In this document: one piece after another, positions 39,226 to 48,602 of the stretch
Numbering within the stretch: position 1 is the stretch's first letter
How the letters are laid out: each line of letters starts with the position of its first letter
From: Deltaproteobacteria bacterium
GTDB taxonomy: Bacteria > DRYD01
Direction of reading: 5' to 3'
Length of the DNA stretch: 64,000 bases
Assembly: GCA_028276365.1 (NCBI GenBank)
Contig: JAPYWL010000003.1
Coordinates: 4,272-68,271, forward strand
The notes under the pieces: generated by a model
What the model was told of the DNA's origin: nothing
What the model saw: the letters and a program-made list of their open reading frames with translations, nothing else
The model's database searches: none
Position numbers and translations under genes: made by a program

Positions 39226-40188
39226 TTAAACTTTATTTTTGTAAAAATTAGCTATAATCTGTTTAGCAATAATATAAGCATTATAAGCAGCACCCCTTAA
39301 TAGGTTATCACTAACACTCCAAAATCCTAACAAATTACTTTCTAATTTCCTTATTCTAGCTATATGAACTTCATTAGTGTTAGAAACATTATAAGGAACA
39401 GGTAAATTAGAATTATTTAGCCAAATCTTAAGAGCTTTTGTAATATCCCCAAATTCAATTAACTCATCAATTAATTTATTATAATTAAAATCTCTTTTAG
39501 TTTTAACATAAACCACTTGACTATGAGCTCTAATAACGGGAACCCTAACAGTAAAAGGGAAAACCTTAAAATTAGAGTTAAGTATCTTATTAGATTCAAG
39601 AATAATCTTTTTCTCTTCAGTACAAATAATATTTTCTAAGTTAGAATCATCAAAAGATCCTATAACAGGAAACAAATTATAAGCTATAGGATAAGGTAAA
39701 TTTTTAGCAGTAAAATCGTTATTTTTAATTTGATACTTAAATTCTTCTAAAGCTTTTTTACCTGCCCCAGAAACAGATTGATAAGTAGCAACATAAACCT
39801 CTTCTATACCATAGTTATCTAAAATAGGCTTTAGTGGAATAACAAGCTGTATAGTAGAACAATTAGGATTAGCTATTACCTTTTTATCAGGCTTTATTTT
39901 ATTTAAATATTGATTATCTAACTCGGGTACAACTAAATTAACATCAGGATCTAATCTAAAAAAAGAACTATTATCAATAACAAAGGTATCAGCATATATT
40001 TTAGGAGCTATATATGCACTAACTTCATTATCAACACATAAAAAAACTATATCCTGACTCCTTAATTTATCAAAATCAATATTATCATTAGAACCTATAG
40101 GGTAAATTTCCCAATCTTCATTATTTTGAATTAATTTAGCTAATTCACTACCAACTAACCCATTTATTCCTACTATAGATACTCTCAT
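39226..40188 (-). CDS. asd: Aspartate-semialdehyde dehydrogenase
   Basis: MRVSIVGINGLVGSEL, NPNCSTIQL (active-site Cys) and SVSGAGKKA. Confidence 0.9.
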   Translation of the reverse strand: MRVSIVGINGLVGSELAKLIQNNEDWEIYPIGSNDNIDFDKLRSQDIVFLCVDNEVSAYIAPKIYADTFVIDNSSFFRLDPDVNLVVPELDNQYLNKIKPDKKVIANPNCSTIQLVIPLKPILDNYGIEEVYVATYQSVSGAGKKALEEFKYQIKNNDFTAKNLPYPIAYNLFPVIGSFDDSNLENIICTEEKKIILESNKILNSNFKVFPFTVRVPVIRAHSQVVYVKTKRDFNYNKLIDELIEFGDITKALKIWLNNSNLPVPYNVSNTNEVHIARIRKLESNLLGFWSVSDNLLRGAAYNAYIIAKQIIANFYKNKV

Positions 40189-40200
40189 AAAAAATAATAA

Positions 40201-40265
40201 GCTGGAGTATTTGTATTCCGCCCTACTTCAAAAATTTTAATATTTTAAACTACCCAGCAGGCGGT
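40201..40265 (-). promoter_or_regulatory. GC-rich pseudoknot-type structured element, copy 1 (with 28-nt insertion), between murG and asd
   Basis: The minus strand reads ACCGCC-T-GCTGGGTA-[28 nt AT-rich]-GGCGG-AATACAAA-TACTCCAGC, followed by TTATTATTTTTT and the ATG. It shares its core with the elements at 46171 and 47519. Confidence 0.5.
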
Positions 40266-40303
40266 CTTTTTAATAAAGCTAATCTCTCTTTATAACTTAC
40301 ATA

Positions 40304-44969: not shown

Positions 44970-45806
44970 TTATAAATTAGCTTTATTAGAAGCAATTAGT
45001 TTATAATAAAACTCCAAATCTTGTTTTTTATCAATATTAAAAGCCAATTCAGCGTAATTAGTTAAAATAGCATGAGCTTTTACATTAAATAATTTATTAA
45101 TTCTTTCCTCTAATTCAATAATAGTTAAATTTTTAAGAATCAATTTAAACAATATATCATATCCAAAAATCTCAGCTAATTTTAATGGTTTCTTTCTATT
45201 TTTTAGTATATTTTCTAATAAATCTAAAAAATTCCTAATAATTTGACTCCTAATAATAAATAAAGAAGTATTACAAAAAGAATCATTTTTAAACCTAACA
45301 AATGTTCTTAATTTTGAAGCCCTATTAGAATATCTTACTTCATAAACTTCTTTACTAACAATAGGTAAAAATATATCACCCTCTATATAATCCAACCTAA
45401 AAATTATATCATTTATACTTTCATAAGTAATAAAAGGAGTATCAGTAGCAACAAATAATAAATAAATATCAAATTCTGTTTCTTTTAAATTTAAAATTCT
45501 ATTAATCACATTTTTTATAGTATCTAATAACTTTTCACCACTATTTATTACCTCATACTTTGGTAAATAATTTTTAATATTTTGTAAATTTTCATAATGG
45601 ATATTATTAAAATAATTTAAATAATTTTCAGGTAAAGTTATAAATCTTTTTAAAATCTTATTTTCATCATATTTAGAAAATATTTCAAATATCTTTTCCA
45701 AAATAGTTAAATTAGAATGTATTAAAAGAGATTTTAAGTTATTATTAAGTAATCCTCCACTAAGCAATATTAAGTAATACTTTTTAAGATATAAAGGTTC
45801 AAACAT
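44970..45806 (-). CDS. Putative nucleotidyltransferase (MobA-like NTP_transf_3 fold)
   Basis: LILLSGGL N-terminal glycine motif and a VATDTPFIT motif reminiscent of MobA/CofC-type enzymes. The assignment is weak. Confidence 0.35.
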   Translation of the reverse strand: MFEPLYLKKYYLILLSGGLLNNNLKSLLIHSNLTILEKIFEIFSKYDENKILKRFITLPENYLNYFNNIHYENLQNIKNYLPKYEVINSGEKLLDTIKNVINRILNLKETEFDIYLLFVATDTPFITYESINDIIFRLDYIEGDIFLPIVSKEVYEVRYSNRASKLRTFVRFKNDSFCNTSLFIIRSQIIRNFLDLLENILKNRKKPLKLAEIFGYDILFKLILKNLTIIELEERINKLFNVKAHAILTNYAELAFNIDKKQDLEFYYKLIASNKANL

Positions 45807-45810
45807 TGCT

Positions 45811-46152
45811 TTAAGTAGTAACCTCTACCATCCACTTAAGATAATCTAAATTACCTGCTTTAATATCAATTACAATTATCTCAGGAACAGTATAAGAATG
45901 ATATTTTTTAATAGTTTCTTCTAACTCTTCTAATTTTTCTTCAGTAGTTTTTATAATCAATAGAGCTTCTTCCTGAATTTCTACATTACCCTTCCAAGTA
46001 AATATAGATTTTAAATTATTAATAATATTAACACAAGCAGCAAGTCTATTATTAATTAATATCCTTGCGATATTTTCAGCTTCTATAATATTTGGGCAGG
46101 TTACAAATAAAACTTTAAAAGGAGAATTTTGTAAATTATCTAATTTCTTCAT
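45811..46152 (-). CDS. cutA: Divalent-cation tolerance protein CutA
   Basis: RLAACVNII...SIFTWKGNVE...LIIKT...HSYTVPEIIVIDI...YLKWM. Confidence 0.9.
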   Translation of the reverse strand: MKKLDNLQNSPFKVLFVTCPNIIEAENIARILINNRLAACVNIINNLKSIFTWKGNVEIQEEALLIIKTTEEKLEELEETIKKYHSYTVPEIIVIDIKAGNLDYLKWMVEVTT

Positions 46153-46170
46153 AATAAAAATATAAAATAA

Positions 46171-46207
46171 GCTGGGATATTTATATTCCGCCTACCCAGC
46201 AAGCGGT
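46171..46207 (-). promoter_or_regulatory. GC-rich pseudoknot-type structured element, copy 2 (minimal form), in the cutA leader
   Basis: The minus strand reads ACCGCT-T-GCTGGGTA-GGCGG-AATATAAA-TATCCCAGC, followed by an 18-nt T-rich tract and the ATG. Confidence 0.6.
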
Positions 46208-46236
46208 ATTACATTATTTTTAATTATTATATTATT

Positions 46237-46761
46237 TTATTTTAAATCTGTTAAATCCGGTAAATTTTGTATTAAAGTTTGTAATTTATTAGCCATTTCT
46301 ACTAATTCCTGTTTCATTATTCCCTTCATTTTATAATACTGATAAACTTTATTAGATAATTCAGATATGAAACTTAATACATTTAAAAAAGATTGTTCTT
46401 GAATATCATTCCAAACCTTTTTTAATTCACTCTTAGATAAAGATAATTCTAAATTAATATTTGATAACTTAGTTAAATAATTATCTATTTCATTTAATAA
46501 ATTTTCATCCTTAGTGTTTAGATATTCTTTTAATTTTAAAAGTATAGCATTAACCTGAACTTTGTACTCATTAAACTTAGGGTTTTCAATATTCATTTTT
46601 TTTATATCATAATCCAAAGCTAAAATATAATTAAGTATTAATTGATTTAAAGAATGAACATAAGAAGAAATTAAATTAAAATTTTTAGTTTTAACAGCAG
46701 TTTGTAGAGTACTTATAACTCGCTGAATTTCTTCATTTGCTTTATTTAATTCATTATCCAT
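46237..46761 (-). CDS. Hypothetical all-helical protein
   Basis: 174-aa ORF, tightly coupled downstream of the thioredoxin-fold gene. I recognise no motifs. Confidence 0.4.
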   Translation of the reverse strand: MDNELNKANEEIQRVISTLQTAVKTKNFNLISSYVHSLNQLILNYILALDYDIKKMNIENPKFNEYKVQVNAILLKLKEYLNTKDENLLNEIDNYLTKLSNINLELSLSKSELKKVWNDIQEQSFLNVLSFISELSNKVYQYYKMKGIMKQELVEMANKLQTLIQNLPDLTDLK

Positions 46762-46780: not shown

Positions 46781-47500
46781 TTAATGTTTATGAAGTGGAT
46801 TCAATTGATGATCTACAAAATGTTTAATAAACTCAGCATATTTGTTTTCAGGTAAAGCTCCTTCTATATCATCTTCAAATACTTTTTGATCTTTTGTTAT
46901 TAGCTTTAAAACAGTTTTAGGAACACCCATTATATTATATTTAATAGCATAATCTTGAAATTCAGAAACTTCCACATTAATAGCTTTAATATTATCACTA
47001 ACAACCGAAAAAGCAGTGGAATTAATAGTCATAATAGGACAATATGGACAAGTAGGAGTAACAAATACCCATAATTCTAAAACTGCCCCATTACTCTTTA
47101 ACATATTATCTATTTCTTTTACAGTATTTATAGTTTTTTCACTTATAGGTAGTTGATCATTAGCTACCATAAGAATAGAATTTAATAACCAAGTGAACTC
47201 ATAACCAGCAGGAATCCCCAAAAACTTAAAATTATAATCCTTATTTGATCTTAATATTATAGCCGGTACTTCCTTTGAAATACCATACTTATTAGCTAAC
47301 TCCACATCAACTAAAGGATTATATAAAACTAATTTTAAATTATCTAAGATTTCAGTTAATTCTTTCAGTAATTGTTCCGTATCAGGACAATACTCACAAC
47401 CTATTTTTTGGGAAAATAATAGCACTTCAGTTAGTTTTGCTAAACTTCCTACTTGTCTTTTTATTTCCTGTCTATCTTGTTCAGTAATAAACATATTCAT
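46781..47500 (-). CDS. Protein disulfide oxidoreductase with two thioredoxin-fold units (glutaredoxin-like PDO type)
   Basis: Two CxxC sites (CEYC and CPYC) in two repeated Trx-like halves. 239 aa. Strong AAAGGAGGGA SD. Confidence 0.75.
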   Translation of the reverse strand: MNMFITEQDRQEIKRQVGSLAKLTEVLLFSQKIGCEYCPDTEQLLKELTEILDNLKLVLYNPLVDVELANKYGISKEVPAIILRSNKDYNFKFLGIPAGYEFTWLLNSILMVANDQLPISEKTINTVKEIDNMLKSNGAVLELWVFVTPTCPYCPIMTINSTAFSVVSDNIKAINVEVSEFQDYAIKYNIMGVPKTVLKLITKDQKVFEDDIEGALPENKYAEFIKHFVDHQLNPLHKH

Positions 47501-47518
47501 TCCCTCCTTTCTAGTAAT

Positions 47519-47557
47519 GCTGTAATCATTTATATTCCGCTATTACAGCTTAGCGGT
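47519..47557 (-). promoter_or_regulatory. GC-rich pseudoknot-type structured element, copy 3, between fabH and the PDO gene
   Basis: The minus strand reads ACCGCT-AA-GCTGTAAT-AGCGG-AATATAAATG-ATTACAGC, followed by ATTACTAGAAAGGAGGGA and the ATG. Confidence 0.55.
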
Positions 47558-47603
47558 AATTCCTTTTAATTTATATAATTTATAAAAAAAATTATAAAAA
47601 ATT

Positions 47604-48602
47604 TTATAATCTCCATAAAACATTAGCCCAAGTAAAACCAGCACCAAATGCAGAAAACAAAACTAAATCTCCCTCTTTAACTAGTCCATTTTGTAATGCT
47701 TCATAAAAAACAATAGGTACTGAAGCAGCCGAAGTATTACCATATTTATCTATATTATTATAAACCCTATTAGCTTCTATTCCTAAATTTTCCATAATTC
47801 CATTTATAATTCTTATATTAGCTTGATGAAAAATATATAATTTTATATCATTAGGTTTTAAATTATTTTTACTTAACAATTCCCTTATTTTATCAGGTAC
47901 TAATGTAATAGCTATTTTAAAAACCTCTCTACCTACCATCTTTAGATATCTATTATTTAGATTTTCACAATTAGGAGGCTCCTTAACTCCACCCACAGGA
48001 ATATATATTAAATCAAATTTAGTTCCATCACTACCTACATTAGCATCAATTAATCCCTTAGTACTATCTTCATCATAAGATAAAATAAAACTACCTGCTC
48101 CATCTCCTAATAATATACAAACAGTTCTATCTTTCCAATCAACTAATTTAGAAATAGTTTCTGAGCCAACCAAAAGTATATTTTTATATATCCCACTTTT
48201 AATTAATGAGCTAGCAGTAATTAATGCATAAACAAAAGCAGTACATCCAGAAAATACATCCATAGAACCAGTATTATCTGAAATTAAATTAGTCTTAGTT
48301 TTTAATTTTCCATGTAAAACAGAAGCAGTAGCAGGAACTATATAATCCGGAGAATTCGTAGCTAAAATAATTAAATCAATTTTATCTATATTATTTGTTT
48401 TTAAATTATTAATAGCATTCAAAGAAGCATTTAAAGCTAAATCAGAGGTAGATGAATCTTCATCAGAAATATATCTATATTTTATACCTGTTCTTTGAGT
48501 TATCCATTCGTCTGTAGTATCTACCATTTTCTCTAAATCATAATTAGATAATACTTTAGATGGTAAATATATTCCTATAGAAGATACTTTAACCCCAAAC
48601 AT
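47604..48602 (-). CDS. fabH: 3-oxoacyl-ACP synthase III
   Basis: Active-site SGCTAF, plus HQANIRII and GNTSAASVPI. Confidence 0.9.
   Translation of the reverse strand: MFGVKVSSIGIYLPSKVLSNYDLEKMVDTTDEWITQRTGIKYRYISDEDSSTSDLALNASLNAINNLKTNNIDKIDLIILATNSPDYIVPATASVLHGKLKTKTNLISDNTGSMDVFSGCTAFVYALITASSLIKSGIYKNILLVGSETISKLVDWKDRTVCILLGDGAGSFILSYDEDSTKGLIDANVGSDGTKFDLIYIPVGGVKEPPNCENLNNRYLKMVGREVFKIAITLVPDKIRELLSKNNLKPNDIKLYIFHQANIRIINGIMENLGIEANRVYNNIDKYGNTSAASVPIVFYEALQNGLVKEGDLVLFSAFGAGFTWANVLWRL

Follow-up and report, generated by a model that had tools for sequence, protein, structure and literature searches.

Minimal pseudoknot upstream of pdo as a probable remnant of a transposon guide RNA

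The sequence studied is a 64-kb window (the whole stretch of DNA analysed, from contig JAPYWL010000003.1), in which a short structured element of 39 nt, designated copy A, is located on the minus strand at 47557..47519, in front of pdo, a gene encoding a disulfide oxidoreductase with two CxxC motifs. Copy A is almost certainly a real pseudoknot, and its motif is very probably what is left, in miniaturised form, of a pseudoknot domain located inside the guide RNA of an IS607/TnpB element. The preferred explanation as a whole, namely, that a remnant of a TnpB guide RNA has been retained by selection and plays a structural role in cis, is put forward with moderate confidence.

Read 5' to 3' on the minus strand, copy A has the sequence ACCGCT-AA-GCTGTAAT-AGCGG-AATATAAATG-ATTACAGC, with the strands of its two stems interleaved. 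Its parts and the adjacent features are as follows; here and below, L-numbers denote loci retrieved in genome and metagenome scans.

47519..47557, minus strand: copy A, a minimal H-type pseudoknot in the fabH-pdo intercistronic spacer, identified by reading of the sequence and by a covariance model (CM) match
47552..47557, minus strand: 5' strand of stem A, ACCGCT, in which CCGCU pairs with AGCGG; the closing pair in copy A is U-A
47550..47551, minus strand: loop L1, AA
47542..47549, minus strand: 5' strand of stem B, GCTGTAAT, the complement of 47526-47519
47537..47541, minus strand: 3' strand of stem A, AGCGG
47527..47536, minus strand: loop L3, AATATAAATG (given also as AAUAUAAAUG), with AAUAYAAAU near-universal in the family
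47519..47526, minus strand: 3' strand of stem B, ATTACAGC; the ortholog in L060 ends in ...CAGT, which gives a G-U pair
47501..47510, minus strand: Shine-Dalgarno (SD) sequence of pdo, AAAGGAGGGA, identified by reading of the sequence
46781..47500, minus strand: pdo, two CxxC motifs and a thioredoxin fold, Pfam Thioredoxin_3

Stem A of copy A is represented by CCGCU/AGCGG (5 bp) and stem B by GCUGUAAU/AUUACAGC, in which all eight of the eight pairs are of the Watson-Crick type. A perfect helix of 8 bp had been claimed for this place by the first-pass annotation, and both the helix and its coordinates proved right, the element being encoded on the minus strand. Loop L2 is absent, and L3 is A-rich (AAUAUAAAU). 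At the level of sequence and pairing, the predicted fold shows the features of a classical H-type pseudoknot, in particular two stems that cross, a short L1, which would span the deep groove of stem B, and an A-rich L3 of greater length, which would run along the minor groove of stem A. The sequence AUUACUAGAAAGGAGG comes directly 3' of copy A, and the distance to the SD AAAGGAGGGA is 8 nt. ATG codons are present at 47500 and 47494, the second of which is the likely start of pdo. The entire spacer between fabH (47604-48602) and pdo (46781-47500), with copy A inside, is 103 nt long.

Two further copies, each located close to the 5' end of a gene, were found in the same window:

46171..46207, minus strand: copy B, ACCGCT-T-GCTGGG-TA-GGCGG-AATATAAATAT-CCCAGC, 18 nt 5' of cutA
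45811..46152, minus strand: cutA, Pfam CutA1
40201..40265, minus strand: copy C, an intermediate form with about 30 nt in L2, 12 nt 5' of asd
39226..40188, minus strand: asd, Pfam Semialdhyde_dh

The CM was trained only on copies of the cutA, rpmF and acpP type, with no copies of the pdo type, and the window was searched with filters off. Exactly three copies were retrieved from the 64 kb: 46209..46169 (copy B, 63 bits), 47559..47517 (copy A, 25.6 bits, E=0.003) and 40267..40199 (copy C, 21.4 bits). The pattern ACCGCT-N(5-25)-AGCGG has a chance expectation of 0.02 per window; given this expectation and the retrieval of these three sites only, the motif is not a chance occurrence. The previously noticed presence of three copies, before the genes of a disulfide oxidoreductase, CutA and Asd, was thus reproduced by the CM and by the Pfam assignments of all three products.

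The scan of GTDB representative genomes with one exact pattern yielded 52 loci, comprising 48 true copies and four chance matches (L020, L046, L049 and L051), from which the 3' strand of stem B is absent. The 48 true copies belong to Aquificota, Thermodesulfobacteriota, Thermosediminibacterales Firmicutes and unclassified metagenome-assembled genomes (MAGs) of hot springs. The metagenome scan, limited to forms with a short L2, added about 30 further copies on contigs with a GC content of 20-29%; most of the GC-rich metagenome matches are chance or coding sequences without the 3' strand of stem B. A recurring GC-rich segment of soil metagenomes, ..CCGCCCGGCTGNACNGCGGAATAYAAAT.. (L065, L071, L072, L074, L077, L079, L084, L085, L101, L102), has no pseudoknot partner and looks like an unrelated conserved coding segment. 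AT-rich contigs of a MAG labelled Acidilobaceae archaeon UBA158 carry copies L009:303-358, L030:550-605 and L030:1613-1668, which are flanked by cas genes (Cas7-like NPNGDP protein); either this bin is contaminated, or the element is present in archaea. Stem A and L3 of the copy at L030:550 are divergent (GCCGCC ... AGCGGGGTATAAAT).

The core of the family can be written as ACCGCY / GCUG.. / RGCGGAAUAYAAAU / ..CAGC. Short forms consist of stem A of 5 bp, stem B of 6-8 bp, L1 of 1-3 nt, L2 of 0-6 nt and L3 of 10-12 nt, and the length of L1 tends to track stem B in them (1 nt at 6-7 bp, 2-3 nt at 8 bp). Stem B was misplaced in a MAFFT alignment of the short forms, in which the length of L1 varies; our own segmentation of 50 distinct sequences and a CM-derived alignment of 60 distinct sequences were used instead, the latter for pair counts. 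Across these 60 sequences, standard pairs occupy 97.6% of cells, as compared to 27-51% with the partners slid, and the covariation score was matched by 0/500 shuffles. Accordingly, the earlier statement that stem B covaries while the core is conserved holds for the family as a whole. The four inner G-C pairs of stem A are invariant, and its closing pair is C-G (n=36), U-A (n=14) or U-G (n=6). At positions 5-7 of stem B, G-C, A-U, U-A and G-U pairs all occur, and the variants of the complete stem include GCUGGGG/CCCCAGC, GCUGGA/UCCAGC, GCUGUAAU/AUUACAGC, GCUGGUUA/UAACCAGY and CUGGAAA/UUUCCAG. At the trm112-like locus, stem B is GCCAAG/CUUGGC; patterns anchored on GCTG miss such copies, so that the true copy number is underestimated. 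Copies with this divergent stem B are located 5' of a Trm112/YcaR-like open reading frame (ORF) at L099:2080-2135 (+), as well as in L082, L089 and L088:4020-4110 (-), and contain a self-contained L2 hairpin, which is duplicated in L088.

Most copies of the other phyla have an additional helix, P1, of 7-14 bp, in which a strand of L2 pairs just 5' of stem A and for which more than 15 distinct complementary sequences were found, as well as a hairpin after stem B. No match at gathering thresholds was detected in Rfam 15 for the window and 19 loci. A permissive search of Rfam 15 with each window copy and one full-length element gave best scores of 13-21 bits against thresholds of 39-68 bits, which were judged to be noise.

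The origin of the motif is indicated by its long forms. Many copies of the family are located at contig ends and are multi-copy and near-identical within a genome. Alignment of the flanks showed that the repeat reaches at least 300 nt upstream and ends abruptly after ..(A/G)ACCAGG, beyond which the flanks differ. In the long forms, the core is the inner domain of a structured RNA of about 150-300 nt at the 3' end of a TnpB-related gene. An ORF of 487-540 aa is located upstream of the core on the same strand, ending about 50 nt before the core in Firmicutes and reading through it in Aquificota; linkage to tnpB on the same strand was observed in L003, L004, L008, L010, L027, L034 and L038. In particular, the Aquificota ORF (L034:2471-4093 (-), L027:275-1465) runs through the pseudoknot region (..KAEYKYPSPKC), whereas the Firmicutes ORF stops 52 nt before it, which indicates that the RNA core is conserved regardless of coding status.

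The protein encoded by this ORF matches TIGR01765 and TIGR01766 ('IS200/IS605 family accessory protein TnpB-related protein'); guided_TnpB and Cas12f were below thresholds, and the match in PDB was Cas12f1. RuvC-like motifs are present in the protein, and a zinc finger is absent. Its family comprises at least 2537 proteins, 17 of which are encoded by Sulfurihydrogenibium azorense Az-Fu1. In L004 and L010, tnpB is preceded by a gene for TnpA of the IS607 type (MerR helix-turn-helix and Resolvase). A single CM recovers both the window copies and the copies linked to tnpB, with the invariant positions common to both and the stems covarying.

A 5' hairpin of the long forms carries the loop CUUGG, CCUGG or UCUGG, which is complementary to the terminal CCAGG (as recognised by eye, with only G-U/G-C variation); judging from sequence, this pairing would correspond to a canonical pseudoknot next to the guide. 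Pseudoknotted scaffolds are typical for the guide RNAs of TnpB and Cas12 (PMC10097598). A TnpB omegaRNA/reRNA is defined as a structured RNA that extends to the right end of the element and either overlaps the 3' end of tnpB or comes after it, and the RNA of the long form is accordingly interpreted as such a scaffold.

The systems described so far include IS607 TnpB with a reRNA derived from RAGATH-18 (PMC11061315) and the IS200/IS605 TnpB of ISDra2 with its omegaRNA (PMC10097598). Similar to these, the RNA that contains the motif in the relatives of copy A is pseudoknotted and overlaps or adjoins the 3' end of tnpB; it extends as far as the right end of the element, beyond which a variable flank takes the position of the guide. 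Also in common with IS607 TnpB are the MerR-resolvase TnpA and the AGGAGG-like left flank, which fits the transposon-associated motifs (TAMs) AGGAG and GAGGG (PMC11061315). In contrast, neither RAGATH-18 nor any other curated family resembles the long form in sequence or by Rfam search; known TnpBs are about 390-410 aa long, while the protein of the relatives is larger, at 490-540 aa, and has no zinc finger; and the window copies are orphans without tnpB, the terminal hairpin and the CCAGG end, and therefore have no guide.

The position of the copies relative to genes follows from the site of insertion. In full elements, the left flank ends in AGGAGG, AAGGAGG or AAGGCGG. For one gene, encoding a tRNA-methyltransferase-like protein, both states of the site were found: the empty site of Fervidicola, ...gagtaaggaAGGAGGcgcaaaATG, has the form ...AGGAGG-cgcaaaATG, and the occupied site of a Tepidanaerobacteraceae MAG, ...gatgaCCAGGcataaaATG, has the form ...CCAGG-cataaaATG. 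This pair indicates that the right end of the element abuts the GG of the SD. The two sites are L001, on the reverse strand some 90 nt ahead of the MQSGF.. ORF, and L013:45-140; CCAGG replaces GGAGG, 6 nt before ATG. IS607 TnpBs are known to use the TAMs AGGAG and GAGGG, and their AG-rich TAMs adjoin the left end (PMC11061315). Elements of this kind recombine at the GG of AGGAGG-like sites and hence land on SD sequences in co-orientation with the downstream gene. Such a choice of insertion site explains the proximity to start codons, the co-orientation and the unrelated gene set without regulatory logic, and since position is explained in this way, the main argument for a riboswitch is removed.

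In the lineage of the window (hot-spring bacteria with a GC content of 20-26%), short copies were found before pdo, cutA, asd, jag/khpB, rpmF, acpP, asnS and a trm112-like gene, i.e., at no fewer than eight housekeeping loci, and the copies of other phyla precede genes of aminoacyl-tRNA synthetases (aaRS), rho, ftsY, priA, ribH, purE and cas genes. The absence of a common pathway, previously pointed out for the three window genes, therefore extends to the wider list. At the loci where the upstream gene was checked (pdo, cutA, asd, rpmF and asnS), the two neighbouring genes are co-directional, and the copy occupies the short spacer that separates them. Contigs totalling 1.2 Mb contain about five strict matches, which characterises the family as a low-copy one. 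The window and about 295 kb of sequence from the same lineage yielded no TnpB homolog, and amino-acid composition did not single out, among the 120 homologs listed, a tnpB that belongs to the AT-rich lineage.

The orphan copies can be arranged in a series of increasing decay:

L017, the asd copy of MAG KM4338-47: keeps the long L2, the 3' hairpin and TTTAC
Copy C, asd of the window: L2 alone is left, and TGAAGTAGG within it is homologous to the linker TGAAGTGG of the long form
Copies A and B, pdo and cutA of the window: keep the core only

The terminal hairpin and the CCAGG right end are absent from copies A, B and C, and the 5' hairpin loop (CUUGG) is also absent from the orphans. Lacking the CUUGG loop, CCAGG and the right-end hairpin, the orphans cannot be complete guide RNAs. 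Later deletions would have removed both transposon genes, tnpA and tnpB, and, from the RNA itself, its 5' part, P1 and the terminal hairpin, leaving the pseudoknot between co-directional genes. In an Aquificaceae MAG (L018:800-5400), three copies are located within 8 kb; two of them come after paralogous ORFs of 224-237 aa (FVIIKNPFTQEVT...), and the third follows an internally deleted tnpB, in which the N-terminal 58 aa are fused to the C-terminus. The 5' flanks of L028 and L031 are identical over at least 45 nt, and their downstream genes differ. The pattern of L018 together with L028 and L031 suggests deletion derivatives resembling miniature inverted-repeat transposable elements.

Comparison of orthologous spacers at pdo, cutA, jag and rpmF (5-6 variants each) showed the core as a conserved island, with substitutions and indels in the flanks. 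Between the window and L036, protein identity is 70-89%, and 70% of four-fold sites are identical, the latter comparison being based on cutA only. All 26/26 stem bases and the 9-nt core of L3 are identical in the pdo copy of the window and that of L036, the differences being located in L1 (AA vs TTT), the tail of L3 and the first base; in the same ortholog comparison, the stems of L036 and L076 are unchanged. Where a stem differs between the orthologs of one locus, the change is either from G-C to G-U or from U-G to U-A. An orphan long form before ribH, present in two Thermodesulfobacteriota MAGs, has a compensatory change from A-U to C-G in P1, and its spacer to ATG has diverged. Because the stems are kept while the flanks diverge, the fold appears to be maintained, and these comparisons indicate that the minimal pseudoknot is probably kept by purifying selection and is hence functional.

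The same data bear on the possibility that the copies are neutral fossils of a decayed IS607/TnpB right end, with no present function and with conservation resulting from short divergence. Such an explanation agrees with the decay series of intermediates, the position fully accounted for by insertion-site choice, the random gene set and the fact that short-form relatives are all within about 85% protein identity. However, at 23% GC the GC-rich core should be the first to go, yet it is precisely the conserved island amid a diverged spacer; four-fold sites are 30% diverged, while 26/26 stem bases of the pdo copy are unchanged; the stem changes are of the two types named above; and the same minimal fold is kept convergently at independent loci. 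Neutral decay is accordingly considered unlikely.

A structural, processing or stability role was the second reading offered by the first-pass annotation, and it is the most plausible present function of the orphan copies. A structural role in cis is favoured since the copies are intercistronic, represent GC-rich islands in RNA of 77% AU, have no expression platform and are conserved in a locus-specific manner. The predicted transcribed RNA would fold as a compact H-type pseudoknot in polycistronic mRNA, where it might serve as a thermostable roadblock to exonucleolytic decay or as a processing boundary before the downstream cistron, which it would protect or insulate; this specific role in stability or processing is proposed tentatively and is itself rather doubtful. 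The broader notion that the orphans are exapted pieces of the scaffold, either a new cis-acting intercistronic class (stability, processing or translation) or docking sites for a TnpB-derived regulator, is a possibility that falls somewhat short of even chances.

Several points weigh against the retention of a guide RNA remnant for a cis role. No remnant of tnpB or IS607 is present in the window, and the proposed link consists of the homology of a core of 35-40 nt and of the intermediates. In principle, the reverse direction is conceivable, i.e., the transposon could have captured an older motif. The depth of the ortholog comparisons is that of a genus (about 85% protein identity), which qualifies what they indicate about selection. 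Finally, no variation is seen in stem A and L3 even when old paralogous copies are compared, which fits continued binding of a protein, e.g., TnpB, equally well.

The last point underlies the main rival explanation, according to which a TnpB-family protein, active or domesticated, binds the orphans in trans, with control or processing of mRNA or titration of TnpB as the result. The invariant nucleotides of the orphans (CCGC/GCGG, GCUG/CAGC, AAUAYAAAU) are exactly those invariant in the transposon-borne scaffolds, and variation is confined to the distal part of stem B and to loops L1 and L2. The protein family is very abundant in co-occurring thermophiles, with at least 2537 homologs and as many as 17 in one genome, and domesticated TnpBs (TldR) are known. 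Nevertheless, the window and the 295 kb of lineage DNA contain no TnpB homolog, the parts absent from the orphans are the CUUGG loop, the terminal CCAGG and the right-end hairpin, and the invariance could reflect tertiary contacts inside the fold. Binding of a TnpB-family protein therefore seems improbable as compared with the cis structural role.

A riboswitch, or another leader sensing a ligand or a condition such as redox or metal stress, was one of the two readings offered by the first-pass annotation. Small H-type pseudoknots serve as aptamers in the preQ1-I and SAM-II riboswitches, and the copies resemble them in having two short stems, L1 of 1-3 nt, an A-rich L3 and a location near the start codon. 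The compact conserved pseudoknot with an invariant loop, covarying as an aptamer would, and the readiness with which pdo and cutA can be read as redox or metal genes also agree with sensing. Nevertheless, no coherent regulon emerges from products as unrelated as L32, acyl carrier protein (ACP), AsnRS, KhpB, Asd, RibH, Rho, FtsY, several aaRS and the products of cas genes. An expression platform with alternative pairing is likewise absent: the core is not complementary to the SD and start region, which is not sequestered, the spacers are AU-rich and not conserved, and there is no consistent terminator. The conserved nucleotides differ from those of preQ1-I and SAM-II, Rfam similarity is lacking even in the permissive search, and the core belongs to the scaffold of a transposon guide RNA. 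The sensing reading was thus abandoned as very improbable.

A DNA-level site for the IS607 serine recombinase is just as improbable: the motif is located near the right end of an IS607-type element, the sites of serine transposases are subterminal, and the stems also form inverted repeats at the DNA level, but changes of the G-U type are restricted to the sense orientation (G-C to G-T, T-G to T-A), compensation preserves pairing and not sequence, crossing helices are meaningless for duplex DNA, and orphan copies are conserved far from any transposase.

An intrinsic terminator was rejected, since no sense-strand terminator was found at any copy by the scan; the lone terminator-like call is on the opposite strand of copy A. 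U-rich tails follow only the cutA and asd copies, in agreement with the earlier remark that the family is not simply a terminator. On the plus strand at 47537-47556, stem A and TAATTCCTTT score as terminator-like; no plus-strand gene is located close by, and the other copies have no such site.

Retention of parts of mobile elements by the host has several precedents. TldR proteins, RNA-guided transcription factors, are domesticated TnpBs, in which, as proposed here, the guide-RNA machinery of a transposon was retained by the host after mobility was lost. TldR keeps the protein and a complete guide RNA and acts in trans on DNA, whereas at the loci described here a scaffold fragment of 36-65 nt stands alone at unrelated genes. 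REP/BIME of E. coli and Correia/NEMIS of Neisseria are short intergenic structures derived from mobile elements, which can stabilise or process mRNA. Similar to them, the copies are short, structured, of mobile-element origin and located between co-transcribed genes; unlike these simple hairpins present in hundreds of copies, they represent a pseudoknot with an invariant core, numbering about eight copies per genome and conserved at each locus.

A prior description of the motif family was not found in the survey of Aquificales non-coding RNAs or in the TnpB literature consulted on the subject. TnpB guide RNAs, IS607 and TAMs of the AGGAG type are known; an omegaRNA family absent from Rfam 15, the inner triple-crossing architecture of P1 and stems A and B, and orphan minimal pseudoknots at housekeeping loci appear to be new. 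A covarying pseudoknot before genes would here be the footprint of a transposon and not a riboswitch, which makes it a cautionary case. The long form would define an undescribed class of omegaRNA of a large thermophilic clade of IS607 TnpB without a zinc finger, and it points to a large, apparently uncurated family of guide RNAs for thermophilic TnpB-related nucleases with their 2537 or more proteins; this family may be of interest in the search for thermostable compact genome editors. If true, the exaptation would be the first case of a guide-RNA scaffold domesticated apart from the nuclease gene and the guide, and, if confirmed, guide-RNA scaffolds would join the parts of mobile elements recruited as host RNA elements.

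The GC content of the window varies between 19.5 and 28%, GC skew is negative throughout, and almost all genes are located on the minus strand. No tRNA or other Rfam RNA was detected across the 64-kb window. Loss of the SD as a hallmark of the element was tried and rejected, as a clear SD is present in only about 28/61 window genes anyway. Scanning for promoters before the element at 23% GC was uninformative (73 sites vs 70 expected), and orthologs do not preserve the best of these sites, 46254..46226. Strong GGAGG SDs are a feature of the ribosomal-protein cluster at about 19.4-29.5 kb, and about half of the remaining window genes have none. Two conserved ORFs located beside cutA, 46237-46761 (-) of 174 aa and 44970-45806 (-) of 278 aa, have no Pfam match on record; their identity with the orthologs in L036 is 79% (174 aa) and 70% (278 aa).

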